Shown here piece after piece: positions 1-20,948 of a DNA stretch of 64,000 nt. Source of the DNA: Candidatus Poribacteria bacterium (GTDB taxonomy: Bacteria > Poribacteria > WGA-4E > WGA-3G). Positions within the stretch are counted from its first letter, which is position 1, and each line of letters opens with the position of its first letter. Location: the NCBI GenBank assembly GCA_965205025.1, contig CBDBFU010000026.1, forward strand, positions 1 through 64,000. Direction: 5' to 3'. The notes under the pieces were generated by a model, which saw nothing but the letters and a program-made list of their open reading frames with translations, was not told the DNA's origin and searched no databases. Made by a program: the position numbers and the translations under genes.

Positions 1-2317
1 AGTATGGTATATCTTTCTAACACCTATGCTGATGACTACAATCAATGGGAGTTACCTGAGGGTGCGAAGTATAGATTTGGTAAAGGAGAAATAAGAAATT
101 ATGTTGATAGAATACAATACCAGTTTTCTCCTGATAGCAGTCAACTCTTTGTAATCAGTACAATAGGGATTTGGAAATACGATGTACAGACAGGAAAAGA
201 ATTGGGATTAATTTCTAAATACTTGGATGAAACTGATGAATATATTAGGCTAAGTCCAGATGGTACGAATTTCGCTGACATTGGAAATTGGTACAACCAA
301 AACGAGATTGAATTGTGGAATTTACAAACGGATGAACTTATAACTACTCTTGACAATCAATCAGCAAGAGTGGAGGCAGTTTCCTACCACCCTAATGGGG
401 AGATTCTCTTATCAGGTGATTCAGAAGGGGTCATTAAACTATGGGATATTGAAACAAAAGATAGTTTCTTTACTCTAACTCTGACTCAGTCTGTTGATGG
501 TATTCGAATCAGTCCTGATGGGAAGAATATACTTTTTAGGAGTGATAAAACCTATACGTTGTATAATTTCAAGACAAGAGAAATCATTGCCACATTAGAG
601 GATACCGAAGGAATTAAACGTATTTTCTTTAGTCCAAATGGGGAACATATTATTGGATACACTTCTGATGAAGTACATATTTGGGATGCTGCATCAGGTA
701 TATTAAGAACCAGACTTGGAATTCCAAGTAGAATTAATAAAGTAATTGTATCTCCTGACGGCAATACAATCGCAACCGCAGGATATAACAATTATACAGT
801 TCAATTATGGAACATTTCAGAAGGAATAGCGAAGGATTCATTTGAAAGTGATCCAAAGTATGTAAAAATGATTAATATGACCGGTGGGAAAACCGAAGTT
901 AGTCGACTACGCAACAAAACGTGTGGAATCCCTTACATTTAGTCCAGATGGACGAACATTAGTAGTTTCAAGTGATGATGAAATCGTCTTCTGGGATATT
1001 AAAACTGGTCAAAAGTTAAACACCTTAATTGCAGAAGGATCATTCTATAACCTTCAATTTAGTCCAGATGGACGCACCCTTGTTGCCAGATGTTATGTTA
1101 GCAAGGGGGTGTCAGGAATCTATTTATGGGATATAGATACAACAGACTTACAGAATTCAAAACTCAGACATATTATTACCGGACATTACAGAGGTATTAC
1201 CTCGTTAGATTTTAGTCCAGATGGCTTGAATCTGGTGAGTGCACATAACTACTTAGTGCGAGTTTGGGATACTTCGAATGGTAGACTGAAAGTTACCGGT
1301 CATGGACATCCGTATCAGGTAAAATTTCGATCTGTGAGATATTCTCCAGATGGAAAGAAACTTGCAAGTTTAGTTCTTAGTATACAGAGTTCTGCAAGTA
1401 AAGCTGAAGTGTTGTTATGGGATGCGAGTACCGGTAAGTACCAAGTTACCTTAAAGGGGCATGGTAAAGCATTTGGTAATTCTCGTCCTTACCATCCAAA
1501 TAGCATAGCTTTTAGTTCTGATGGCAAGACACTTGTGAGTGGAAGTCTGGATGGAACGGTCCGTTTTTGGAATGCGAGAACAAATGCCCGAGATTCATTT
1601 TTTCACAGTTTGCATGGTAGTCTATTTGGCCATTCTAAGGCAACCTTGAAAGGAGAAAAGGAACATATCATAGTTGTTGCTATAAGTCCTGATGATAGTA
1701 TGATAGCAACTGCAAGTTCAGTTAATACTGTCCGATTGTGGGATACACAGAAACGTAAATTGAAATCAATTCTTGAAGAAAGTAAGGATGGTGTAACTGA
1801 TGTTAATTTTACGGGTTTTCGGAACAAACAGAATAGGAAAAGAACTGAGTTCACAATGACTGATTCAGATATAAATAGTCTTGCCTTTACATCTGATGGG
1901 AAGACACTTATAGTAGGAAATAGGAAAGAAATTACTCTATGGAATACTGGCACAAACAAGCGTATTAAATCCATTTCTGTCCAAAGGAGTAATAATGCAA
2001 AAGTATATAAAACTACTGTTCGCAATCACATATATGGAACAACACCAGAGAAACCGAAGAATATTAAAGTTGTAGACCAATCGGACGTTGGTTTCCGTTC
2101 CTCAAGAATCACCACTTTCGCACTCAGTCCAGACGATAGCAGTCTGGCAGTCGGACTGGGAAATGAAGTGATTTTATTAGATAATCTTTCATTTGAAGTT
2201 AAGAGTGTACTTGTTGGTCATCCTGTGCGGATTCTTGCCTACAGTCCTGATGGTAGGACGCTGGCGAGTGGGAGTTCGGACGGAACAATTATGGTTTGGG
2301 ATTTGGAACAAGAGTAA
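1..2317 (+). CDS. WD40-repeat protein, probably 5'-partial, split by a +1 frameshift at about 889-892 (ORFs 4..942 and 884..2317)
   Basis: Many FSPDG...LWD repeats in both ORFs. Removing one A from GGGAAAACCG joins them (…MTGG-KPKLVDYATKRVESLTFSPDG). The N-terminus looks like the end of a signal peptide followed by QWELPEGAK. Confidence 0.88.
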
Positions 2318-5876: not shown

Positions 5877-8636
5877 CTATAGAAGTGATTCAACAATTTC
5901 TTGAAACCGTGTTTCAAGTTTCTCACGCTGTACATTCATCTCTGAATCAGCTTTGAGTTTTGTATCTAATAATTCATCGTATCGCTCAACATATTCCAGT
6001 AGATTCTCTACCTCTTTTTCATAACAAATTGCTGAGGTTAAGACCTTTTCCTTTACAACAACGGGAAGCTCTTGAGTTGTAATCTGTGTAAGCTCCCATC
6101 TCCAGACTTTTTCTGAGATATATGATATAAACCGTTCTAAGGTTTCACCCGCATAGCTGCAATTTTGGAGTTCCTTAACCTCTTGAATTAATCCTAAGAC
6201 TTGGTTGAAAAATGATTCTGGGAGGCTGTTTTTTAACTCCATTAGGATGCGTCCTGTTGTAGAAATCGGTAGTTCATTTTGTAGTAAGAAAACCCGAAGG
6301 TTAGGATAATCCTCTAAAGTCTTGATGTCAGTGAGCCATGTTTCACTGATTGCGGGGAGTTCATTCAAGTCGAAACTAAGTACTTGCTTCTTTCGTATCT
6401 GATTAAGTTCAGAAGTATTTCTATTGAGTCCGGCATTAGCGAGTATGCGGATGGATTCGGATTCTCCATACGGTTTCAAGAATGTAATCATCTCCTGAAC
6501 TTTCATCTGTTCTGCTTGAATATTTTCAGGAGTTAGATTACCGTTATTTTTCTCATTGTTCGAGTTTCGTTTTTTGCTTTTCCGAGTAGGAGTTGTAGAC
6601 CGATTAACTTTCTTGGAAAGTGTTTCAGCGTACCTTTCTAATTCCTCCCGTAGGAGAGACAGAGTCATGTCGCCGTGGATAGCAAGTTTTTCAGTAGAAT
6701 TAATATCTCGTAGATTATGTCCTGTTTTAGCAACAAGTGAGCGATTTAGATTGCGTTCCAGGGTCTTACGATCTTTTTCGTTTGCAACGACAAGTTGACT
6801 TCCCAATGTAAGATTCATTAATCTTTTTGTTTGATCTGGTACACTGAGATTGATTTCATAAGTAGGTTGTAGTTCTCCCAACAATCTTTCTCTGTATTTC
6901 CCATTTAGAATTAGTACCCACAATGTAGTGAAATAATTGTGAAGTGATTCAGCATCAGATGGTGTTTGTTCAATCCATTGCTTAATGATTGGAAAATAGA
7001 TTTCAATCTCTGTAAGAATCTCATTAAGTTCTGCCTCATCAACATCAAAACCTGGAAAAGTTTGTTGTTTCTGTCTTGCAGTTCTTGGACTTCGTCCATT
7101 GAGTGAAGATTTTGTTGCAAGGAGTATTTTTTGAATTGGTTCAATGATACCTTCAAATTCACAACTATGTTGTTCTGCATGGTTTGCAATTTCAATGAAA
7201 GATAACCATACCTTTCGAAGTCTTTCAATTTGCAATGGATGCATTGAGGAACTCAATCCAATCCCAGTCAATTTTTCCCGAATAGTTCCTGATGTCCATT
7301 CAGGCAGAGATAATTCGTCCTGTACTATATTGTCCTGAAGGACAGTAACATTGACTGGTTTAACAAACCCAGTTGCTATGAAGTTCTTTTCAAATAACAT
7401 ATCATGATAGAGTGCCAAAGCAAAATCGCAGACCTGATTTGTTATAGTATAACTGGATTGAATCATATGGTTCAGTGTATATTGTTGTGTTTCCTGTAAT
7501 TGCCAAGATTCAATGATTGGCTCAATACAATCTCTAAGTTTGTTCTTGATTGTCTCTATAGTGTTTTCATCAAATTCCTCAGCAATATAGTCTGCATAGA
7601 ATTCTGTAAACGTGGACATAGTACCTTTTAGTTCTTGAATAACGAGATCATCCCAGACTTTATTGTGTATACGTTGTCCATTATTTAACATCAGTGCTTT
7701 GAGTCTACTTTCCACACCTTGATGGAATTCAGTCATCAAATTGTATGCATGTTGATTCACTTTTACCGTATAATCTTCAATTTTCTTTGAAGACTCAGTA
7801 ATGGTATCTTCAATTTCATCTTGGGCTGCCGTGAATTGTAGTGATACAAGGCGAAGTTGTTTAGGTTCAAGGGGATTATATACTGCAGCAGTGGGCAAAA
7901 CTCTGGCTGATGGATTGGAATTAACTTCCTCCTCGTTGATAAAATTGTTTTGGAGAGTGAGACTGTTACCTAAGTCAAGCAGATCCGGATAATTCTTTAT
8001 GTGTGTCCGAACGATACTTAAGACAATATCGTAGTCACCCTTCTCAATTTCGTTGAGTACACTGTCTTCGTTAAGATGTAAACGGTTAATGTGAGTTTGT
8101 TCAGGAATAATTACCTTGCTTGAAGAATAATCGGTATCCTCTATGTTTGTAAGTACATAGGCACCCGTTTTAATAGTGTTGGGAACTACTAACCGTGATT
8201 GAAGTACTTCTTCAGTTAGATCAGAAAGTGTTAGAGATTTACCTAAATGTTGAACGGTGATGTCTGTAATTACACCATCAGCGAAGTCACTGATTTGTCG
8301 TGTGTTGCGTTCTAATTCTTGTACACTTTTGTGAACCCTGTCATAATCATCAAGAGCAGTATTCTGTATCTTTGTTTCGTCTATCCAAGATACCCATGCT
8401 CCTGGACGGTGTTTCATTTTTAGTGTAAGTTGTCCATCTTCAGAATCGAACCCGGGAAGAATCTGACTTTCCGAAGTTTCCTTGGGTGTCCAAACAATGA
8501 GATGTTTTTTATTTTTTCCCCCAAGTCCAATACCAAATGTATCTCCCCAACTCATCCGTCCTTCAACACTTGCTTTAAGTTTATCAGTTAATAATAATAG
8601 CGAGTCAGATTGAAAATTAAGCGATATATCTTGCAT
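5877..8636 (-). CDS. Large hypothetical protein (919 aa), largely helical/coiled-coil
   Basis: Long ORF with GGAGG upstream; no recognisable motif; ends 9 bp before the MDH-like gene. Confidence 0.8.
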   Translation of the reverse strand: MQDISLNFQSDSLLLLTDKLKASVEGRMSWGDTFGIGLGGKNKKHLIVWTPKETSESQILPGFDSEDGQLTLKMKHRPGAWVSWIDETKIQNTALDDYDRVHKSVQELERNTRQISDFADGVITDITVQHLGKSLTLSDLTEEVLQSRLVVPNTIKTGAYVLTNIEDTDYSSSKVIIPEQTHINRLHLNEDSVLNEIEKGDYDIVLSIVRTHIKNYPDLLDLGNSLTLQNNFINEEEVNSNPSARVLPTAAVYNPLEPKQLRLVSLQFTAAQDEIEDTITESSKKIEDYTVKVNQHAYNLMTEFHQGVESRLKALMLNNGQRIHNKVWDDLVIQELKGTMSTFTEFYADYIAEEFDENTIETIKNKLRDCIEPIIESWQLQETQQYTLNHMIQSSYTITNQVCDFALALYHDMLFEKNFIATGFVKPVNVTVLQDNIVQDELSLPEWTSGTIREKLTGIGLSSSMHPLQIERLRKVWLSFIEIANHAEQHSCEFEGIIEPIQKILLATKSSLNGRSPRTARQKQQTFPGFDVDEAELNEILTEIEIYFPIIKQWIEQTPSDAESLHNYFTTLWVLILNGKYRERLLGELQPTYEINLSVPDQTKRLMNLTLGSQLVVANEKDRKTLERNLNRSLVAKTGHNLRDINSTEKLAIHGDMTLSLLREELERYAETLSKKVNRSTTPTRKSKKRNSNNEKNNGNLTPENIQAEQMKVQEMITFLKPYGESESIRILANAGLNRNTSELNQIRKKQVLSFDLNELPAISETWLTDIKTLEDYPNLRVFLLQNELPISTTGRILMELKNSLPESFFNQVLGLIQEVKELQNCSYAGETLERFISYISEKVWRWELTQITTQELPVVVKEKVLTSAICYEKEVENLLEYVERYDELLDTKLKADSEMNVQREKLETRFQEIVESLL

Positions 8637-8825
8637 TGTGCAATTATTGCATGTCCTCCATATAGGTCTGAATCTATGAAGTATATTTTTACTACATAAA
8701 TATGAAGAATATTGAGATATGGTTTATTAGATAGATTATGAAAAATATAATATAGTATGTATATGAAAACAATTATGTAATATATAGTTATTTAAATATA
8801 TATGAATCCGATTGAATTGCATAAT

Positions 8826-9389
8826 CTATAAAAAATCTTGTTTAATCTCAAGTCCCCATACATCCCAACCTTCAACTTTCTTCCTTGCGAATAGTTCAAG
8901 TTTACTCTGGTCAGGAAACATCTCTTCTATCCGTTTTCGAACTTCATCTGGTTTTTCTGAATGTCGTGTTCGTTTTTCTTGTACAAGTTGTCTTATATTA
9001 CGCATTCCCCTGGGTTGTGGTATTATGCCTCGCTTGAAAACGAGGCATAATTCGCATTGACTCATAGTATAAAAGCCAGGATTAACTCTGCCTTTATCCC
9101 ATATAAATGCGACAGTCGCCCATCTGAATCCCCATGCCTTTCCTAAAGCGATTGCTTGGTCAAGATGTGGTGATGAACTCCACATAAAGAGTAAGCAATT
9201 CTTCGAGGAGATAGATGCAACATTCCATTCTGCCATATCTGTAACAGATATGGTAGGATAATGCTTAACTGCACCACCACTATCTTTACCACCAGAACCG
9301 GTATGTTGTAGTTGTCCTTTATAGTCCCAAGGAGGGTCGGCATAAAGTATTTGATACTGTTTATCTGGAAATGGAGGGTGTGATATCAT
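8826..9389 (-). CDS. MT-A70 family N6-adenine methyltransferase (orphan)
   Basis: YADPPW catalytic motif, LFMW, WGF…FIWDK, E.CL…RG, HSEKP, LELFAR, GWDVWG. Confidence 0.9.
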   Translation of the reverse strand: MISHPPFPDKQYQILYADPPWDYKGQLQHTGSGGKDSGGAVKHYPTISVTDMAEWNVASISSKNCLLFMWSSSPHLDQAIALGKAWGFRWATVAFIWDKGRVNPGFYTMSQCELCLVFKRGIIPQPRGMRNIRQLVQEKRTRHSEKPDEVRKRIEEMFPDQSKLELFARKKVEGWDVWGLEIKQDFL

Positions 9390-9479
9390 AGAAAACTAAC
9401 AAACAGATTCATCGAAATGATGTAACTGTCTGTAATACAACTTACCTTTTCGAAGGTTATTTCTATAGGTTAGCGTTTA

Positions 9480-10028
9480 TTACTTGGCATCTACGCTAAG
9501 TCCATCTTGAGGTATGTCATTATTTGCGACTAACATATCCCGCGAGAAAATGAAATCACTTCTGGAACTACCGAGTTTTTGATTTTCAGTTTGGCGTTCA
9601 CGGAAATATTGTGGTAATGTTAAACCTGTCATGCGTATGGCATCTTCAGGACAGGCTTCAACACAATATCCACAGAATATGCACCGTAACATATTGATCT
9701 CAAAGACCTCAGGATATTTTTCCCGTTGATATCCTTCTTTTGTAGTCCACCCATCAGGAGCAGGAGCTGCTTGTATAGTAATACAGTCAGCGGGACATGC
9801 AGTGGCACACAAAAAACATGCGACACACTTGATTTCGTCTTTCTCAGTTTTTGTTAGTTTGTGTATCCCGCGATACCGATCATTCCGTTCATCAACACTT
9901 CTCGGATCTTCGGGGTATTGAACTGTTAATTTCTTTTTAGGGATGTGCTTTAAGGTAGTAAACATACCCTTAAGGAGGGCAGGAATATAAAGCCTATCCC
10001 AAAATGACATCTCTTCATTAACCTTCAT
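9480..10028 (-). CDS. nuoI: NADH-quinone oxidoreductase subunit I (2x[4Fe-4S])
   Basis: TVQYPE, RYRGIH, CVACFLCATACP and INMLRCIFCGYCVEACPEDAI. Confidence 0.9.
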   Translation of the reverse strand: MKVNEEMSFWDRLYIPALLKGMFTTLKHIPKKKLTVQYPEDPRSVDERNDRYRGIHKLTKTEKDEIKCVACFLCATACPADCITIQAAPAPDGWTTKEGYQREKYPEVFEINMLRCIFCGYCVEACPEDAIRMTGLTLPQYFRERQTENQKLGSSRSDFIFSRDMLVANNDIPQDGLSVDAK

Positions 10029-10142: not shown

Positions 10143-11644
<1,502 letters not shown>

Positions 11645-11731
11645 TGGAATCATCTCCTTTATAATAATGTTGGTATCGGTGGGTGTGAATTAACAAAACA
11701 ACTATTGCATTATGCCTTGATATTCCCATAA

Positions 11732-12194: not shown

Positions 12195-12971
12195 TTAATC
12201 CCCACCGTATTGTAAAAGATCAATAGGTTCGGTTTGTGCTTGCACCATATATCTCAATAGCAGATTCATAAAGAATCCCCAAGAATTATCTACAAATATA
12301 CCGTGTAAATGACTGGTTTCGCTGGGGAGAAAATCATAACAATCACTATGGTGGCATATTACATTACCATTATCTGTACTTTTTAGAGAAAAGATAGAAT
12401 CGACTCTTTTCTCCATAGGAAGACTCTCCGTATTAACAATCCGCTTATATTCCTCGATTAATTCACTACTACTCATACTGTCTACAGACAAAATAAAGAA
12501 TATTGATTTCCAATGACTTGAGTCCGTACCATACAATTTATATGATTGCTGGATTACGTTATCTGGTGAACTAAGATATGCTTTTCTAATGAGATTCTTA
12601 TAGCTGGTACAATTTCTAAAACTCTCCGCTAATTCAGTTGTGTCAAGTTTAGCTTTTACTACACCGCAAGCGAATGTGCTTTCAATTGGAAACACTTGAA
12701 CAGCATCGCTGGTAAACAGACGGGGTGTGTTCATCTTATCAAACAAGACTATATCCATGGGAGTGGATTCACCACCATCTGAATCAATTACCACCCCACT
12801 TGATACACCAATCTTCTCTGGTAATATCTCTTCAAGATTCTCATTGAAAGTCTTCTCAATAAGTTTCCCTTTTTCTCCTGGAGTCGGGATAACTCCTTTG
12901 AATTGTTGGATAGATATTTCAAACTTTTTCTCAGAAAAGGAGAGTGATTCTTGATAACGTTTGTTGGGCAT
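12195..12971 (-). CDS. DUF6602-like putative PD-(D/E)xK nuclease-fold protein
   Basis: GEKGKLIE…LPEKIGVSSGVVIDSDGGES..MDIVLFD…FPIES pattern recalled for DUF6602; the expected EVK motif reads VVK. Confidence 0.65.
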   Translation of the reverse strand: MPNKRYQESLSFSEKKFEISIQQFKGVIPTPGEKGKLIEKTFNENLEEILPEKIGVSSGVVIDSDGGESTPMDIVLFDKMNTPRLFTSDAVQVFPIESTFACGVVKAKLDTTELAESFRNCTSYKNLIRKAYLSSPDNVIQQSYKLYGTDSSHWKSIFFILSVDSMSSSELIEEYKRIVNTESLPMEKRVDSIFSLKSTDNGNVICHHSDCYDFLPSETSHLHGIFVDNSWGFFMNLLLRYMVQAQTEPIDLLQYGGD

Positions 12972-13043
12972 GATTATATCCTGTATGTTCTCATTAACTG
13001 AAGTATGGTGGTTACATTGTCATTATTCAGTATCAACTCAATA

Positions 13044-16041
13044 TCATTTACTATATTGACGGATATTGTTTTGAATGTTCCACGGATCAGTAATTTCAAG
13101 GAAATCCCAGGCCCCCAAACTCCCCGCAACCGTTCACTGCTGGCAACCACATATTCTTGATAGTGTTCACTTTCTGAACTTTATCTTCTCTTGGCATACC
13201 AGAGACCTCAAGGATAAGGTTCACAATATCATCGTTAGAGCCGTTTTCTCCTCTACGAATTCGCACAATAAAGTCGGGAACATATTGGCGGCGTTCCCCA
13301 TTGTGATTGATGTAAGGAATCATAAAACCCATGTTGTGGTTTTTGACATAAGCAATTACCTCATCCATTTGTTCAAGTGCTTGTGCAGTTTTCTGTTCCC
13401 AAGAATCTGTGTCAGCAACAACATGTGAGATGTGACACTTGTCTGCTTTTGTTTCCCATGTCGGTTGTGAGGTTTCAAACAAGACTTCGGATGTTGATCC
13501 TGTACGTCCTTTTGTGTGAGAAGATTGGGTATAAATGGGGAGGAAAGTCTTTTCTGAAGCAGTGTTTTCAGAATCTGTGCTTTGGGGTTGTCGTTCAGAA
13601 TTGAGAATACCCATGTGAATCCGATACGCAGCCTTCCGTGCAATTTCACCAATGTGAAAAAACTGCGGATGTGTGTTGTCTTTATAGGTAACACACTCTT
13701 TCATCCATCGGCGTGTGATACGAAGAAGCTCTGAGAAAAGCCACCATTTCGCATCATTATCAGCGTCACTTATGTGCGTTTCCATGAGCACTTTGGTAAG
13801 GTAAAACTCGGTTTGCTGGTTTCGGAACTTTGTCAGATAAGGCAACTCAACCTCTCTTGTTCCGCCAGTAATATCCTCAATTTCTGTTTTAGATGGAATT
13901 TCTGCTGTAGAAAGTTCATAGTGGGAGTCTTCAGTAAAATTGGCATCCAACTTTTCGGATGGGAGGCAAGGACGATATCCAGCAATTCTCGGAAATGTGA
14001 TTTCGCACTTCGCTTTTCTTTCTGGTAAAGCCTTAACTTCTGTTATAGGTTTAGGCTGTATCGCTTTTCCACTGCCGGTTGCAGGGATAAACGAGAACGG
14101 TACACCGTATACTTCAGCATATTCTGGCGGAAAAGTTTCCAACTCTATATCATTGTCATTGACCTTAATAGTTGTCTTTTCCACATCATAAGTAGAGCGG
14201 CGCAAACCTCTCCCAACAACCTGTTCACAGAGCAATTGCGTGCTAAATGCGCGGACACCAAGGATATGCGTTACCCGTCTCGCATCCCATCCTTCGCTTA
14301 GCATTGACACTGACACAACGCACTTAATCTTTTCACCGAGTTTATCCCGTTTACCAACAGTATTCAACACTTCTCGTAATAAATCCTCATCTGTAACTTT
14401 TTCTACATTCATCTTCCGCATAAACTGTTCAATCTGTGTTTTGGATGCTTTTTTAAACTCACCCTTCAGTGCTTCTCCAGATTCCAACTGTTTGCTATCA
14501 ATTAGCAATGTGCTTAACTTTTCACTCCACTCCCCGTTCTCCTCATTGTTAAAAATCGGTAAATTTCCTTTTTCTATAACCTTTTCTCCATCGGCAGTCA
14601 GTTTCTCCCATCCGGCAATCCAGTCGTAAACAAGTTTGGATACCTTTGTGTTGTTACAAACAACTATCATGACAGGTGGTGTTAACCCGTGTGGGTTTTT
14701 CTGCCATAGGTCATAAGCTTTTTCATAATTGGTATAAAGACTTTGGAGTGCAGTTTCCAATTCTTGTGGCAGCTGCGGTTCACCATCCGTTGTTATTCCC
14801 TTAAGTTTTGTCCCAACGACATCCCAGAGGCGGCGGTAAATCGGATCGCTCGCCATTGTGTCGTCCGCAACAGGAACGCGCGGCACCTTCGCGATACCAC
14901 ATTCAATCGCATCAATTAACGCAAAATCGGACACGACCCACGGAAACAGAACTCCTTCTTTGAGTTTCTTTCCACTCGGTGTAGTGGTTGAATAACCGGA
15001 ACCGCTCAAGAAGAATGGTGTAGCGGATAAATCATAAACTACTCGGACACCGAGTTTCGCTTTCACTGCCTCAAGTCCACTTATCCATAGCCGTGGATTA
15101 TCTTCAGTTAACTCAGATTCCTCATCCTGTTTACGTCGAAAACAGTGATGTGCTTCATCGTTCAACACTATTATATTTTTCTTTTTACCGAGACTGCGAC
15201 AGACCCGCGCAACCATTTCATCAGGTGTTTCTATGAAATTCTTTGCACTCTCTTCTCCCAGAACTTGCGCCCCTACTTTGCTCAAATTTTCCTTTTTTCG
15301 GGTTTGAAAAGCGTGATAGTTCGTAATGATGATTTTCGCCTGACATAACATTTCAAAATCCCCGTGGGGAAGCAAGTTCATTTTTCGATAATCGTTTTCA
15401 GGATTTTCAGGAAGGAGTACCTGGAGTCGGTCACGAATTGTTACACCTGGCGTGACTATGAGAAAAGCATCCGTGTAACGTTCACTTCGAGGATTCGCTA
15501 TTTTATTCAACGTGTGATATGCGATTAGCATACCCATGACAACTGTTTTACCGGTGCCTGTCGCCATCTTGAAGGCAATTCGAAAGAGATTGGGATTCGC
15601 TTCTTTATTTCCGTTCACAAGTTCACGATAAAACGAGTCCTGGCGTTGTTTGACATCACACTCATTGAGATAGATAGCAGTCTCAACAGCTTCACGTTGG
15701 CAGAAAAAGAGACGCGGTTCGTTATCAGGATTGTTCCAATGCTCAAGTAATCGTTTTGTTGTCGGGGTTACACCCGGATAACCACTATTCCGCCATGCCG
15801 TTACTTGGGCGCGTACTCTATTGATAAAAACATTCGCCTCCCGAAGTTCTGGATCGGGAAGGAGTGTAATTTGATCTTCCCGTGTCTGTTTTCTCGGTTT
15901 CGGCATGGGGATAAAGTATTCACTTCTACGTCTGCCCTCAACAATATCCTCAGTAATCCCGCGCTGTGTAAATTTGAAGTGTCGTTGCGGTTCCTGAAAT
16001 GGACTGTTGATGACAGGGTTTTCTATTGTAACTTTTGACAT
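13044..16041 (-). CDS. res: Type III-like restriction endonuclease/SF2 helicase subunit (BPTD_3080-like); apparent extra G near the C-terminus
   Basis: MATGTGKT Walker A, NDEAHH, SMLSEGWD, EQVVGRGLRR, C-terminal YVPDF…ILEV nuclease. The ORF stops at 13096, but removing one base from the C5 run at 13112-13116 gives FGAWDFLEITDPW…stop at 13044. Confidence 0.9.
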
Positions 16042-16049
16042 TATTGCTC

Positions 16050-17216
16050 CTATTCCTTCTCGATCTTCATCATTTTCTGCACGTTCTTAATCGATTTGTA
16101 GACGAATCGCTTGTCTTGATCAAATTGGTTTGCGATTTCATGGAACACTGTTGCAGGGTCGGTATTATCATCAAATTCATGCTGTACCATGAGTTCCCAG
16201 ATTTGCTTTTGGGTATCCGCATCATTTTTAGCGATGTTAAACTTATGCTCAATTCGTTCGATTGAGGAAGTGATTTGATGAATTGGATAATCTTCCTTTA
16301 ATATTGCGATAATTTCGTCAAGATTGGGATTCTCCCAGTTTTCAAAGGCTTTCAGGATGGTAGCCCAAATCACCATGTCACTCAGCTGTGTCTGCTTCTG
16401 TGTCCAATGCACTTGCTCTATTTGGTGTGGTTTACACTTGTAGAGACGAATTTCGTCAGTTCCTTTTATTTTTACATACCAGATGCTACCTTCTTCACCA
16501 CTAAACATCGGAGCATGGTTCTGATCCAAACCAATAAACGACAACCGTTTGTCGAGATCGTGCTGTTCTTGTTCATAGTGCCACACATAGTCTTTTTCAA
16601 CGGTGCCGAGTCGTTCTGCCTTCGGGATATTGCCTGCTTCGAGTTCGGTGTTCAGTAGGATCTGACCTTGTGTCCCGCGTAGTCCAAACAATAGCACGAT
16701 ATCCAACTGCACATCCTCGTATTGGATCATGTGCGGGTTATCCGACCCGTAGAGCTCAAAACTGAAACCTGTGACATCGGGATTCAGTTTAAACAATTCG
16801 GTGATCTGCGGATATTTACGCAGCATGGACTTCCACATCGTTATATAACGACCCCGCAAAAATGGAAACAAGCGCACTTTAAACGTGATGTACGTCATCC
16901 CGTTATATTTGTAGCGGTACATAAAGATATTGGTACCATCGTATTTTCGGAAAAGGTGGATCCATTCCGCGCTCGGAAATCGATAATTATGCCCCAATCC
17001 GAAGGGATAAGCAATTTTCGGCGTACCAAAGATTAGCGGCTGATCGACAAATTCACCATTGATCTTTTTTATTTGCAGCGCGCCGTAGCGTTTGTCTTTA
17101 CTGAAACTGATCTGACCTTCAAGGTGGTTTTGCGGGTTAAAGGGATCTGTCTCTCTAAATTCGGAGTAGTCTGAATCTAAAGTTTGCTGCCCGTTTTTTA
17201 TTTTGTGTTGATCCAT
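16050..17216 (-). CDS. Putative ATP-dependent RNA ligase (covalent nucleotidyltransferase superfamily, Rnl1/Rnl3-like)
   Basis: GTPKI, motif I RKYDGTN, Ia FKVR, III FSFELYGSDNPH, IIIa IVLLFGL, IV EEGSIWY, V YKCK in the correct order. ATG 17216 has a GGAG RBS (ORF track extends to 17363). Confidence 0.72.
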   Translation of the reverse strand: MDQHKIKNGQQTLDSDYSEFRETDPFNPQNHLEGQISFSKDKRYGALQIKKINGEFVDQPLIFGTPKIAYPFGLGHNYRFPSAEWIHLFRKYDGTNIFMYRYKYNGMTYITFKVRLFPFLRGRYITMWKSMLRKYPQITELFKLNPDVTGFSFELYGSDNPHMIQYEDVQLDIVLLFGLRGTQGQILLNTELEAGNIPKAERLGTVEKDYVWHYEQEQHDLDKRLSFIGLDQNHAPMFSGEEGSIWYVKIKGTDEIRLYKCKPHQIEQVHWTQKQTQLSDMVIWATILKAFENWENPNLDEIIAILKEDYPIHQITSSIERIEHKFNIAKNDADTQKQIWELMVQHEFDDNTDPATVFHEIANQFDQDKRFVYKSIKNVQKMMKIEKE

Positions 17217-17239
17217 TGCTGTTCTCCGAGAGGTTGTTC

Positions 17240-17449
17240 GGGTCTCTACATCAACATATCTCATGTACTCGTTAAGAATTCGCCATCCATCATCAACAAG
17301 TGATGTTTCGTTTTGATAGAGAATCTGTTTAATTCGTTTCTGACAGCGTTCTACATCCTTCAATGTGGCATGTCCTGCCTCAGCGCAAGTTGGACCTCAC
17401 CGCTATCTTTCCATGATTTGAAGTTTTTCATTCTAATATGTGTAATCAT
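17240..17449 (-). pseudogene. Fused remnants of an AAA/ABC ATPase N-terminus and a PIN-like partner gene
   Basis: 17449-17360 reads MITHIRMKNFKSWKDSGEVQLA…stop after a GGAG RBS. An overlapping frame reads HATLKDVERCQKRIKQIL…LVDDGWRILNEYMR. Confidence 0.6.
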
Positions 17450-17478
17450 TTTCCCTGTCTCCAAGTTGACGTATTTTG

Positions 17479-17892
17479 TTAAAGTTGGTCCTCAATCCAT
17501 TCATCATCGTGGGCTGGATTATAGATTAGCCCTTTTTTAATATCAAGACAGAGATCCAGGTATTCAAGTACCATGTGTCCGACAAGAACAGGTAGTTCAG
17601 CTGGTAGATCCGCCACCTCTATCGTCCCTTCCCGCTCCAAGACTGTATACCGAACATCTGAATAAACTGTCCGCGTTACAATACCGTTCGTGGTCTGTGC
17701 CCGTCTACTTCTCACAGGAGTTAAGCCGAGTTGTTCAATAAGCGGTATCGGTAAGGACAATCCAGTTGCACCGGTATCAACGATTGCGTCTTCAACGGTC
17801 ACTTGCCGAATTGCTTCAGGTTTGATAACACCTGCTTCTGCCAAAAACTGATCTTTTCGATTTGCAAGTTTAATTTTTGTTGTGTGTTTCAC
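17479..17892 (-). CDS. Clan AA (retropepsin-like) aspartic protease
   Basis: AIVDTGAT catalytic motif and VLVGHMVLE. GTG start at 17892 after AAGGAG. Confidence 0.85.
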   Translation of the reverse strand: MKHTTKIKLANRKDQFLAEAGVIKPEAIRQVTVEDAIVDTGATGLSLPIPLIEQLGLTPVRSRRAQTTNGIVTRTVYSDVRYTVLEREGTIEVADLPAELPVLVGHMVLEYLDLCLDIKKGLIYNPAHDDEWIEDQL

Positions 17893-17988
17893 TTTTCGAT
17901 CTCCTTGATGAACGATAAGATAATTGTGATATAGCATACCCTATTTTTAAGCAGAATTCATAAAAAAAGCCATTCCAGCGACATTCAA

Positions 17989-20664
17989 TTATACCTTATA
18001 CTCCTTCATCACCTCATCACCATAATGATTGATAACCTTCACCGCTATTTTACCAGATTCAGGCTTTGCAAACGGCAGGCTCTCCGTGCGATAAAGTGCC
18101 TCCCACGCCTCCTCGTTAATTTCTGATTTTAACGCTTTTTGCAGCTGCTTATAAGGTTCGTTTTCACCTGTGAAATAGGCATGCCGCACAAAAAACGCCT
18201 CGCCATTGTAAGCAGTATCAATGAACCAACACGCGATATCGTCAGGCGTATTAGAACGGAGCAATCCCTTCCCAGGATCATACACATCTACACCTAAGAG
18301 CTTGACAGAGATAGTGTCATCTTTATTCTCTACTATCTCCACGTCCGGTTCTCCGAACACCATAAACAGATTGCCTTCACCTGTATTTTTGAGTTCGCGT
18401 ACCATCAGCTCAGGACTAATTTTGACAGGTAGTATCGGCAAACTTCCTATTTGTGTGCTTTCATCAGCGGTGTAACCCTCAAAGGCGAATCCTGCCACAA
18501 TGAGCAGATCGTACTTAGCAAGTTTTCGTACAGCCTCTTTTGCAGCTTCCCGTACCCACTGCGGACCGACGGTATCATATTGCGGTCCGATGCTGATAGC
18601 GATGTTCTGAACTTTCTCGTCCTTGTCTGTCCGCACACCTTCAGCGTGGAGCCACTCACCGGGATGTTCCTCTAACCAATCAAAGGTGATACGATCTTCC
18701 TTAAGCCGATTTTGCACCCCTGCTGTTTTGAGATGCTCAAGGATATGTTTATGGTAATCTTGTGCGTTCTCTGGGGAAACATTTTCTGGTGTCCCACTTT
18801 CTACATCGGAAGAGTCAGGCACAAGATGCGGAGACAAACTCTCCATCGTAAAGGGACCTGTTACACGCACCCGTTTTCTGTCTTGATGTGGTTGATCGTA
18901 AAGGGTCTCGTTTTTGGCACGTTTTTCGGTGGAGACATCCATCGTTAATTGACGTTCACGTTTTAGACCAAGCCATTCACGATGCAGTTTCTGAAGTTCC
19001 TTGTCCCATTCAGTATCAGTTTCGGTTGGTACCTCCCACTCTTCCCAATTTTCCCCGATAAGACGGTTCATCTTATCACGGAGCGGATCTAATTTCTCTG
19101 CATATTCTGCATGAATATCGTCAATTTCTGTGTTATTTGCCATGTCTGAGAGACTGACATAAGGTGCTGTTTTATATAAAAAACCTTGCTTGATGTCGTT
19201 TGCATCTTCAAGACGATAGTAGGGATATTTAGCGGACATGAGGCGGGTGCGTGCTAAGGCAAGTGCTACCTTTGAAGTATCTGTTGTTATCCAACGCCTT
19301 CCCCATTCTTCCGAGACATAAGCAGTTGTGCCGCTGCCACATGTCGGGTCAAGAACGAGATCACCAGGATCTGTTGTCATGAGTACGCATCGCTGAATTA
19401 CTTTAGGTTGGGTTTCAACAACGTAACTCTTCTCACGACTACCTGCTGTGTCTGTCCAGATGTTAGTTATAGGCCGTCCAAGGGCATCATTAGTATATCG
19501 GATATAATATAAAGCCCTTTCTTTTCCGACAAGTCTTCTTTGTTTTGCCAATCTATCCAAGCCATCTTTACTTGTACTCCATCCCCTTCGACCTGGAGGG
19601 GAAAAACTACGATTTTTAAATTCATAATTAAATGTCGCGCTACCGCCTGTCTGTGATGATACTGAAAGTTCAAGATATCTTCGACTTTCTTCAGGCAACA
19701 GCCAAGGTTTTTTCTTTTCTTCTTGTGTCATTCCTCGGCGTGTCCCATCAGGCAATTCAACTTGTGTATAACGCCTAAGAAGTGGATCGGGTGTACGTGC
19801 ATCCCATTGTGCATATAGTTGTCTATACTTCATTTGCTCTTTGTCTTTTGCATACCATAATAAATAATCTGATATTGAAGCTAAGCCACTTGAAGAAGTC
19901 ATGTTAGCACGGGTCCACGTTATTGTTGAAACGAAATTCTCCTCTCCGAATACCTCATCTAACAAGCACCGGACTTGATGAACGTTCTTTTCACTTATCT
20001 GAACAAAGATGCTACCGCTATCAGTGAGTAAGTCACAAGCGACGGTGAGACGGTCGCGCAAGTAGGCAAGATAAGAGTGTATTCCGTATTCCCATGTATC
20101 GCGATATGCTCTAATCTGTTCTGGTTGGGTAGTAACATCTTCATCAGTTTCGTCTACATTACTTTTCCGGGTGCTAACTTGCCAATTGCTCTTGAACTTG
20201 ACACCGTACGGAGGATCAATATAGATCATTTGTACACTATTTTTGAATCCCTCTTTTTCAGCAAGGGAATTCATTACTGAGAGCGAATCGCCAAGGATAA
20301 AGCGGTTATGCCAATTCTGTTCGTGTTGGTAAAACTCAATTTTCTGTTCAAAGTCAAGATTGTCAAACCCTTCAAATAGCATGCCGATCTGGTCTGATTC
20401 TTTCTGCTGTTGCGCGCGGAGTACTTCAATGATGGCTTGCGGTTGGATATGTTCCTGAATGTAGACAGGGACAGCCGTCACCTCAAGATCGTCATCGTTC
20501 TGTTGGTCTTTGCCTTTCCAAACTAACTGCGGGTCAAGTGCAACATCGCGCGGGTATCGTGTCGGTGCAAAGTCTTCGTTTTCGGCAAAGCCGCTCAGTT
20601 CTTGGGTTGGATTGTTAGGGAGTTTATCGGTATGTTCATAATGGTTAATAGGTTTTTTCGGCAT
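17989..20664 (-). CDS. mod: Type III-like RM DNA methyltransferase (Mod, beta-class amino-MTase)
   Basis: LGDSL, YIDPPYG (motif IV), AYRDTW, VLDPTCGSGTT (motif I), GRRWIT, C-terminal IAVKVINHYGDEV. Confidence 0.92.
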   Translation of the reverse strand: MPKKPINHYEHTDKLPNNPTQELSGFAENEDFAPTRYPRDVALDPQLVWKGKDQQNDDDLEVTAVPVYIQEHIQPQAIIEVLRAQQQKESDQIGMLFEGFDNLDFEQKIEFYQHEQNWHNRFILGDSLSVMNSLAEKEGFKNSVQMIYIDPPYGVKFKSNWQVSTRKSNVDETDEDVTTQPEQIRAYRDTWEYGIHSYLAYLRDRLTVACDLLTDSGSIFVQISEKNVHQVRCLLDEVFGEENFVSTITWTRANMTSSSGLASISDYLLWYAKDKEQMKYRQLYAQWDARTPDPLLRRYTQVELPDGTRRGMTQEEKKKPWLLPEESRRYLELSVSSQTGGSATFNYEFKNRSFSPPGRRGWSTSKDGLDRLAKQRRLVGKERALYYIRYTNDALGRPITNIWTDTAGSREKSYVVETQPKVIQRCVLMTTDPGDLVLDPTCGSGTTAYVSEEWGRRWITTDTSKVALALARTRLMSAKYPYYRLEDANDIKQGFLYKTAPYVSLSDMANNTEIDDIHAEYAEKLDPLRDKMNRLIGENWEEWEVPTETDTEWDKELQKLHREWLGLKRERQLTMDVSTEKRAKNETLYDQPHQDRKRVRVTGPFTMESLSPHLVPDSSDVESGTPENVSPENAQDYHKHILEHLKTAGVQNRLKEDRITFDWLEEHPGEWLHAEGVRTDKDEKVQNIAISIGPQYDTVGPQWVREAAKEAVRKLAKYDLLIVAGFAFEGYTADESTQIGSLPILPVKISPELMVRELKNTGEGNLFMVFGEPDVEIVENKDDTISVKLLGVDVYDPGKGLLRSNTPDDIACWFIDTAYNGEAFFVRHAYFTGENEPYKQLQKALKSEINEEAWEALYRTESLPFAKPESGKIAVKVINHYGDEVMKEYKV

Positions 20665-20948
20665 AGACAGGTTTCCCTTACTTAAATTGCAGTTCAAATT
20701 GGGTGTGTAAAATTTTTGGGATAAATGGATTTAATTGTTACAGAATATTTATAATAAATGGTCTCCTTACCTAATGTTCTATCCACATTCAAATGACGGG
20801 TAGGTGTTCGTAGAGGTGGGATTTCCCAAGCCGAAATATCCGTTATTTATGACTTGACAAAGCAATAGTCCACTAATTAGAGACCCATCTCTGTACGCAT
20901 TATACCATATCTCTAATCATTTAACTATACCTGTCCTATACTTGAGTA

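Follow-up and report, generated by a model that had tools for sequence, protein, structure and literature searches.

Background

RNA-cleaving defences such as PrrC, RloC, PARIS and HEC-03 are usually seen as one-way systems that end in suicide or dormancy of the cell, and RNA ligases are seen as counter-measures of the phage. PrrC is an ABC-ATPase-type anticodon nuclease located inside the EcoprrI Type I restriction-modification (RM) system, and it is countered by Rnl1 and Pnk of phage T4. The present analysis deals with a gene for a putative ATP-dependent RNA ligase, which lies between the methyltransferase gene (mod) and the restriction gene (res) of a Type III-like RM locus of a Candidatus Poribacteria bacterium (assembly GCA_965205025.1). 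The locus was analysed within a stretch of 64,000 nucleotides (nt) of contig CBDBFU010000026.1, which is called the window.

Two other described systems are close to this locus. According to the main text of a preprint (bioRxiv 10.1101/2024.01.29.577857), HEC-03 is an anti-phage system of two genes, an ABC ATPase and a VapC-like PIN ribonuclease (RNase), both of which are needed; it was found through 'guilt by embedding' in Hma and other systems, and no induction was applied to the HEC-03 and HEC-04 strains because they appeared toxic. The word 'ligase' is absent from this main text. A conflict system of PIN_3, ATPase, ATP-grasp RNA ligase and HNH, in which the ligase is proposed to neutralise the nuclease, is attributed to Burroughs and Aravind 2016 in a passage of PMC5499597. 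In the literature searched by title, no RM-embedded or PIN-linked ligase of the Rnl type was found described, the search not covering Burroughs and Aravind 2016 or the HEC supplements.

The best explanation for the gene in the window is that its product is an active RNA ligase, ATP-dependent and structurally of the Rnl1/Rnl3/Trl1 type, and belongs to a sequence family for which Pfam has no model. It would be a host RNA-repair ligase that was acquired together with a PIN ribonuclease module and is now orphaned. The probability of this explanation as a whole is put at about 0.5.

Results

The ligase gene occupies positions 16050..17216 of the minus strand and encodes 388 amino acids (aa), with an N-terminal sub-domain and nucleotidyltransferase domain at residues ~11-276 and a helical C-terminal domain at ~277-388. 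The longest frame at the locus in the open reading frame (ORF) listing runs over 16050..17363 of the minus strand and gives 437 aa from a TTG start, because the remnant of a PIN gene lies in frame with the ligase. Among the 120 matches listed, the homologues are mostly 386-392 aa long, with starts that coincide with the ATG at 17216, and GGAG is found 6-9 nt upstream of this codon. The homologue lengths and the upstream GGAG mark this ATG as the real start of a 388-aa product, in accordance with the coordinates given in a preliminary description of the sequence. The spacing of 8 bp reported there was also confirmed, the stop codon being at 16050-16052 and the ATG of res at 16041. The gene is single-copy in the contigs of its genome. 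The ratio of nonsynonymous to synonymous substitution rates (dN/dS) had a median of 0.115 (range 0.07-0.18) for 119 pairs from 16 orthologues, RM-less and PIN-less loci included, which indicates purifying selection on the ligase whether its neighbours are present or not.

The nucleotidyltransferase motifs that had been noticed earlier were all present and were invariant in an alignment of 24 ligase homologues with identities down to 38%. These were K91-Y-D93-G94 of motif I (KYDGTN), K113 and R115 of K113-V-R115, F153-E154-x-x-G157 (FELYG), L176-F177 (LLFG), E242-G243 and K260-C261-K262, with the ligase motifs Ia, III, IIIa, IV and V in order. A further invariant motif, T65-P66-K67, was revealed upstream of motif I. 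Ligase motifs by themselves cannot separate RNA from DNA or other acceptors. The AlphaFold2 model obtained from the same alignment was confident (predicted local distance difference test, pLDDT, 88.8; predicted template modelling score, pTM, 0.71) and has the adenylyltransferase fold, in the form of an Rnl1-type nucleotidyltransferase domain with an N-terminal extension. In this model the C-terminal 120 residues are helical and an OB-fold domain is absent after the nucleotidyltransferase domain, which bears out what had been suggested from the sequence.

Comparison of the model with the PDB by Foldseek gave 40 matches at E <= 0.001, all RNA ligases or Rnl3-type chains, including T4 Rnl1 (1.7e-9), archaeal Rnl3, the Naegleria ligase, T4 Rnl2, fungal Trl1 and REL1; one Aquifex entry deposited as a putative DNA ligase is also among them. 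The DNA ligases in the list start at E >= 4.7e-3, below the RNA ligases. The structural comparison with Rnl1, Rnl2, Rnl3 and DNA ligases that had been proposed for this protein is therefore in favour of the RNA ligases. In a language-model feature search (Atlas), 26 of 30 matches were clusters with PF09511, mostly viral, which is taken as a lead only. The motifs and the model indicate that the protein is a ligase of the Rnl1/Rnl3/Trl1 type by fold and motifs, yet it lies outside PF09511 by profile.

The sequence searches gave little. No credible match to the ligase was obtained in Pfam (E <= 0.1), NCBIfam, PADLOC or PHROGs, and a 19-bit match to Lipid_DES was rejected as it is under its cut-off and spans 18 residues only. 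The phmmer and profile searches of PDB sequences returned nothing but a chance match (0.07) to a WD-repeat protein. PF09511 (RNA_lig_T4_1) did not match the ligase, and four family members of ordinary length (P0176, P0206, P0265 and P0227) were likewise without a Pfam match at E <= 0.01; the genome-wide search with PF09511 was empty, as were those of the control genomes. The Rnl2-family profile PF09414 (RNA_ligase) matched neither the ligase nor anything else in the genome. When the ligase family alignment was compared by hhalign with RnlA from the T4 record, the result was not significant (E 0.84), with motifs III, IV and V nevertheless in register.

The family itself is large. A profile search of 1.84 billion representatives (50% identity clusters) found 621 proteins at E <= 1e-3, of which 301 were at <= 1e-30. 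Several long members (P0147, P0209, P0144, P0210, P0161, P0139, P0162) carry inteins with LAGLIDADG homing endonucleases, and in the clear cases the insertion follows KxDG in motif I (P0147), precedes the Cys in motif V, K-C-K (P0144, P0210), or falls at the TPK motif (P0161). Inteins are typically placed in catalytic motifs, and their presence at the catalytic motifs of the ligase therefore supports an active enzyme. Inteins within an RNA ligase family seem unusual.

The neighbourhood of the ligase was analysed in a series of loci (numbered from L001), whose genes were called with a caller filtered on third-position GC content (GC3). A scan of one genome per species returned 40 loci, namely 16 orthologues of 75-90% identity from Poribacteria metagenome-assembled genomes (MAGs), one 46% paralogue and 23 loci at 29-38%. 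In a phylum sample of 151 genomes, which includes the genome of the window (G000), a ligase match of any kind was present in 28; 16 full-length orthologues, that of G000 included, and several fragments are among them. A set of 74 loci, called the other loci below, comprises the L016 paralogue, loci from other phyla, and metagenome and viral contigs.

The fullest ligase locus is L012, in genome G113, which has the order Uma2, aspartic protease, mod, a 440-aa ABC ATPase (AAA_15/AAA_21/DUF3696), a 169-aa PIN protein, ligase and res. The ATPase and PIN proteins of L012 match the two HEC-03 models of PADLOC at 2.4e-112 and 1.9e-30. The labels of these models are swapped between sources, HEC-03B being the ATPase and HEC-03A the PIN protein in PADLOC-DB v2 and the opposite in the main text of the preprint (10.1101/2024.01.29.577857).

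Alignment of the window with L012 revealed that 86 bp of the ATPase start and 147 bp (~49 codons) of the PIN gene remain, while L012 positions 8123-9399 and 9547-9986 are absent from the window as two deletions. The ATPase remnant, at 17385..17470 of the minus strand, holds the first ~29 codons of the HEC-03-like gene; it aligns by blastn to L012 8037..8122 and by tblastn with 86% identity to residues 2-30 of the L012 ATPase. The PIN remnant, at 17239..17385 of the minus strand, holds codons ~15-65, with 85% identity by blastn to L012 9400..9546 and 76% identity over residues 17-65 in the genome search. The alignment thus shows that two deletions destroyed the ATPase-PIN pair and left the ligase as an orphan. 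The locus does not count as HEC-03 in the window, as only remnants of the two genes are present. The ligase is indeed in the mod-res interval, as had been described, but it is not the sole occupant, since an aspartic protease gene and both remnants are found there too.

An intact ATPase-PIN pair adjoins the ligase in six loci (L006, L007, L010, L011, L012, L015), and in L005 the contig ends within the pair. When 37 PIN proteins of these loci were placed in a tree, the six intact ligase-adjacent proteins formed one clade (support 99/96), whose sister is the PIN protein of the ligase-free locus L060. In the window, L001, L008 and L014 the ligase is preceded by remnants of PIN or ATPase genes, with a different deletion pattern in each, and it stands immediately downstream of one PIN subtype or its remnants. 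The single clade argues for one acquisition followed by co-inheritance and not for independent recurrences, and these comparisons indicate that the ligase entered the lineage beside one ABC-ATPase/PIN subtype. Recurrence of a three-gene ATPase-PIN-ligase module in independent lineages was not found, the module being limited to one clade and absent from the other loci. In the five loci with a degraded ligase (L118-L122), neither the PIN pair nor res survives in any. No locus had an intact PIN gene of the ligase-adjacent clade beside a dead ligase, as would be predicted were the ligase the safer of the two to retain, the genomes being few and related. Among the three roles suggested earlier for the ligase, neutralisation of a co-encoded ribonuclease is the closest to these comparative data, although the ribonuclease pair is now deleted in the window.

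An orthologous res gene (>= 67% identity) occurs in 32 of the 151 genomes, and the ligase is adjacent in only two of them (G000, G113). Intact res is kept in four of the 17 orthologous ligase loci, window included (window, L001, L005, L012), and intact mod in three of the 17; short res remnants follow the ligase in L006, L009, L011 and L017. The RM plus ligase combination put forward in the preliminary description is, by these counts, not a recurrent system. The linkage to mod and res exists in a few Poribacteria loci; it does not recur, and mod was found in none of the other loci. The ligase orthologues share one chromosomal site, bounded on one flank by a large conserved gene and a Uma2 nuclease and on the opposite flank by two ABC-transporter permeases.

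Thirty of the res loci have no ligase beside them; 20 of them were fetched, and in 17 of these one to three tandem ABC-ATPase and PIN pairs lie between mod and res; none was present in L045, L056 and L058. The mod-res interval is therefore a cargo slot whose usual cargo is HEC-03-like. At the DNA level, mod and res of the window share 92% identity with their counterparts in L042, a locus of the same genus that carries a different PIN subtype and no ligase; this difference in cargo shows that cassettes are exchanged between conserved flanks. On this distribution, the ligase is best described as optional cargo in the RM slot and not as a subunit of the restriction enzyme.

The cargo of the ligase-free loci is itself varied. 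Among the loci L042-L061 (e.g. L054, L059, L050), tandem arrays of up to three diverged ABC-ATPase and PIN pairs occur, from at least four PIN clades. In L050 the mod-ATPase-PIN unit is duplicated whole, and in L047 the second PIN gene is interrupted by ~1.3 kb. WD40-repeat genes are extra cargo between mod and the ATPase in some islands (L001 3906-4850; L052; L049), and WD40-like ORFs are also seen at the start of the window (52-2305).

Outside the orthologous loci, the contexts of the ligase were different. Among the other loci res was found only in L077 and L078, two short metagenome contigs with an 80-81% identical ligase and res directly after it. Clustering of 72 non-orthologous loci for a universal partner gene revealed lineage-specific synteny only. 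The 23 distant loci (29-38% identity) are from Binatia, Desulfobacterota-like, Dehalococcoidia and other MAGs, and the neighbours found elsewhere include an amidohydrolase, an E1 dehydrogenase subunit gene with dnaN, folD, UDP-GlcNAc epimerase, and Uma2 or SNase genes. The 46% paralogue of the same phylum, L016 (9424-19067), lies in a defence island with a Dsr1 homologue (1160 aa, 2.1e-234) and a PglX/Eco57I-like methylase (983 aa). Three small paralogous ORFs of 155, 130 and 129 aa, none with a Pfam or PADLOC match, flank this ligase paralogue. Viral relatives of 27-34% identity were found on nine contigs, where the neighbours on the contigs examined include replication protein O and SNF2 helicases, and tRNA genes are present on three contigs. 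A tblastn search of 50,697 phage records with the ligase gave no match at E <= 0.01.

The genes in the window have the same-strand order mod, aspartic protease, ligase, res and DUF6602/NucC-like nuclease. The product of mod (17989..20697, minus strand) is a Type III-like N6/N4 DNA methyltransferase of 902 aa, matched by PADLOC MTase_III PDLC03632 (4.6e-244) and Pfam N6_N4_Mtase (3e-34). The res gene (13096..16041, minus strand) encodes a 981-aa restriction endonuclease with a helicase domain, matched by the NCBIfam BPTD_3080 family restriction endonuclease (1049 bits, cut-off 800) and Pfam ResIII (5.9e-11). The matches in the three databases support the earlier view that the ligase is embedded in a Type III-like RM locus. 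Downstream of res, a PD-(D/E)xK nuclease of 258 aa (12195..12971, minus strand) was matched by Pfam DUF6602 (6e-20) and by PADLOC PD_DExK (4.8e-30) and NucC (2.4e-18); it had no match in the loci L001-L061. An MT-A70 methyltransferase is present at 8826-9389, a few kb beyond this nuclease. In related loci, ABC-transporter permeases follow res or the ligase, as found with permease queries; they do not in the window, and the island therefore lies in a different chromosomal context here.

The aspartic protease of the window (17479..17937, minus strand, 152 aa) is of the retropepsin-like clan AA, with matches to Pfam Asp_protease_2 (1.2e-5) and to NCBIfam clan_AA_DTGF (2.3e-8), the latter below its cut-off. 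This protease (clan AA, DTGA) recurs in the island, at L001 3338-3751 and L012 4319-4732, in L046 and in L055 (93-95% identity in these four loci) and in L118, with 86-95% overall; its position varies, being either upstream of mod or between mod and the cargo. A sigma-70-like site, TTGATA-17-TATAAT (11/12), lies at 17518..17546 of the minus strand upstream of the ATPase remnant; it is the best of the region, and it is weak evidence and a lead only. The promoter and terminator scan of the region gave counts not above those of shuffles (sigma-70-like sites 20 vs 22.9). The guaB gene (inosine monophosphate dehydrogenase, IMPDH) of the window is split in two overlapping ORFs (10143-10916 and 10907-11653, minus strand) that cover Pfam IMPDH 1-102 with CBS and then 112-345, through a frameshift, a sequencing error or a truly broken gene.

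RNA-repair genes are located elsewhere in the genome. RtcB was found on contig C12 (395828-397135, 1.3e-173), and a Hen1_L match on contig C31 (106390-107115, 9.5e-115), which suggests a Pnkp-Hen1 system. The absence of a Pnk or Hen1 partner from the window, as stated in the preliminary description, holds for the surroundings of the locus, where none was noted although the window was not scanned whole; the genome nevertheless has both the Hen1_L match and RtcB. Two more PIN loci of the HEC-03 type are present, at 46558-47022 of contig C28 and, interrupted, at 412143-412633 of C12, 16 kb from rtcB. The C28 PIN domain is part of an open frame of 669 aa, possibly a fusion of ATPase and PIN. These PIN paralogues are candidate trans targets for the ligase.

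Discussion

According to the preferred explanation, the ligase was added in one lineage directly downstream of one PIN subtype, giving the order mod-ATPase-PIN-ligase-res that is intact in L012. The ATPase would sense infection and release the VapC-like PIN RNase onto tRNA or rRNA. The ligase would adenylylate itself on K91, pass the AMP to the 5'-phosphate end of the RNA and reseal the break, serving the host either as an arm for repair or reset or as a safeguard against a leaky toxin. In the window, the orphan ligase would be co-transcribed with res and kept by selection, presumably still repairing RNA cut by other RNases; other PIN paralogues are present in the genome. RNA as the substrate of the ligase, the chemistry of the cut ends and the functional coupling to the PIN protein are what we infer. 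A more ambitious proposal is that mod-ATPase-PIN-ligase-res forms a reversible abortive-infection module inside the RM locus, in which the PIN protein halts translation once a phage disables or escapes restriction and the ligase then revives the cell. Such a module would need no healing enzyme if the PIN protein left 5'-phosphate and 3'-hydroxyl ends; it is regarded as unlikely.

Several results weigh against the ligase as a repair partner of the PIN module. The adjacency of PIN and ligase is one evolutionary event in one bacterial family, and because relatives share inherited neighbours, functional coupling is not shown by adjacency. At least 10 loci keep the ligase without the PIN pair, so that no PIN protein is required. 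The PIN, ATPase and mod genes were not found in the 74 other loci (780 kb), where the profiles used were built from the phylum and may miss distant versions. Outside the phylum the contexts of the ligase are lineage-specific; in 12-13 Binatia loci (L022-L040, L079, L085, L090; e.g. L022 8593-12611) a PaaK-like AMP-binding enzyme and a UbiD-family decarboxylase enclose it at a spacing of 7-28 bp, followed by a 106-aa ORF without a Pfam match. These AMP-binding/UbiD surroundings are odd for an RNA ligase. The C-terminal domain of the ligase taken alone (pLDDT 88.7) had no significant structural match, and tRNA specificity is therefore unsupported. RNA-level records were sought for positions 13000-20800 of the window and none were found. 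The chemistry of the cut is a further point: a passage of one report links VapC expression to the activation of RtcR, a sensor of 2',3'-cyclic phosphate ends (PMC7790460). Ends of this kind, if VapC-type PIN proteins leave them, would need a healing enzyme, which is absent from the ligase locus.

These points bring in the main rival, a stand-alone RNA repair or processing ligase that hitch-hiked into a mod-res recombination hot spot, so that its neighbours say nothing about its function. It would reseal tRNA or rRNA nicked by any RNase, or circularise RNA as Rnl3 does. The size of the family, with 621 representatives and no recurrent partner outside the phylum, is in accordance with this, and so are the metabolic and housekeeping contexts found elsewhere (AMP-binding/UbiD, E1 dehydrogenase subunit with dnaN, folD, UDP-GlcNAc epimerase). 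An intact ligase also persists under purifying selection after the loss of mod, res and the PIN pair, and the slot is seen to swap cassettes, as the window and L042 with 92% identical mod and res and different cargo indicate. A housekeeping role is, however, difficult to reconcile with an accessory distribution in the phylum (28/151 genomes) and with the decay of the ligase along with the island. Both contexts within the phylum are defence islands, that of L016 beside Dsr1 and the PglX-like methylase, and the gene is always immediately downstream of one PIN clade or its remnants. The stand-alone ligase is a possible explanation, though a less probable one than the repair ligase acquired with the PIN module.

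The viral relatives raise another possibility, that the gene is a captured phage counter-defence gene comparable to T4 rnlA, domesticated or left over, which shields the cell or a resident element from the PIN toxins of competing cassettes. The nine viral contigs with relatives at 27-34% identity, the mostly viral Atlas clusters with PF09511 and the inteins with LAGLIDADG endonucleases are consistent with such an origin. In the loci of the phylum, though, neither structural nor integrase genes of phages were noted next to the ligase, and no match came from the 50,697 phage records (tblastn, E <= 0.01) or from PHROGs, which makes the capture of a phage gene improbable. A DNA-level accessory of the RM system (for example one that closes nicks left by Res in the host DNA) or a non-ligase effector that transfers AMP is very improbable: the 8-bp gap to res suggests co-transcription, the motifs alone are compatible with RNA, DNA or other acceptors, and the Binatia site between an adenylate-forming enzyme and UbiD hints at members outside RNA repair, but there is no OB domain, 30 of the 32 genomes with orthologous res have no adjacent ligase and 13 of the 17 ligase loci have no intact res, so that an RM subunit or DNA nick sealer was rejected on distribution and fold.

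The preferred explanation, a repair ligase acquired with a PIN module, has consequences beyond the window. A host ligase inherited with a PIN-RNase pair inside a restriction operon would suggest that some RNase defences are reversible. If the reversible module were true, it would be the host-encoded mirror of the conflict between T4 Rnl1 and PrrC, with a new RNA ligase family that is also phage-borne. The ATPase, PIN and ligase genes of the L012 type are a compact, testable three-gene set. The work also defines an Rnl1-like ligase family without a Pfam model (621 representatives at 50% identity, some with active-site inteins), and reveals the mod-res interval of this RM type as a cassette-swapping slot. 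For the window itself the meaning is more modest, its ligase being the orphan survivor of a decayed module. The proposal of a candidate new RM plus RNA-repair defence system stands in so far as an RNA-ligase-type enzyme is present in an RM locus; its status as a system does not, as the ligase is cargo that came with a HEC-03-like pair overlooked at the time, and HEC-03 is already published as a defence system in the preprint main text. The locus is not a new 'RM + ligase' system and belongs to a known theme, that of RM loci with RNase defence modules and RNA repair nested inside them.

Comparison with known systems

The ligase of the window resembles T4 Rnl1 (RnlA) in having a helical C-terminal domain in place of the OB fold. 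It differs in having no significant sequence similarity to it (no PF09511 match, hhalign E 0.84), and no significant match between the C-terminal domains was obtained. The archaeal Rnl3 enzymes (Pab1020, MthRnl) and fungal Trl1 likewise have no sequence-level match to the ligase; the dimerisation and C-terminal domains of Rnl3 were not recovered for residues 277-388, and the kinase and CPD domains of Trl1 are absent. Like the bacterial Pnkp-Hen1 and RtcB-RtcA systems, the ligase would be part of host-encoded RNA repair, and the genome carries a Hen1_L match and RtcB, neither of them in the window. RtcB has an unrelated fold and joins 3'-phosphate ends.

The system attributed to Burroughs and Aravind, as outlined in the passage cited, shares with the Poribacteria loci an operon that combines a PIN nuclease with an ATPase and an RNA ligase. 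The Poribacteria ligase is unlike it in being a nucleotidyltransferase with a covalent lysyl-AMP and not an ATP-grasp enzyme, there is no HNH, and the module is nested in an RM locus. The likeness to HEC-03 is in the pair of L012, which matches both PADLOC models and is nested in a restriction-type system with helicase and methylase. In contrast to the published HEC-03, the host system is a Type III-like mod/res, the pairs occur in tandem arrays of up to three and one subtype has the ligase as a third gene, while in the window only a remnant of the pair is left. As in the conflict of T4 RnlA/PseT with PrrC, an ABC-ATPase-linked RNase in an RM locus is opposed by an RNA ligase. The T4 ligase is encoded by the phage, whereas the Poribacteria ligase is encoded by the host, inside the RM locus and beside the RNase, with no Pnk in the ligase locus; the RNase is a separate PIN protein and not a fused nuclease as in PrrC, and the RM system is Type III-like and not Type I.

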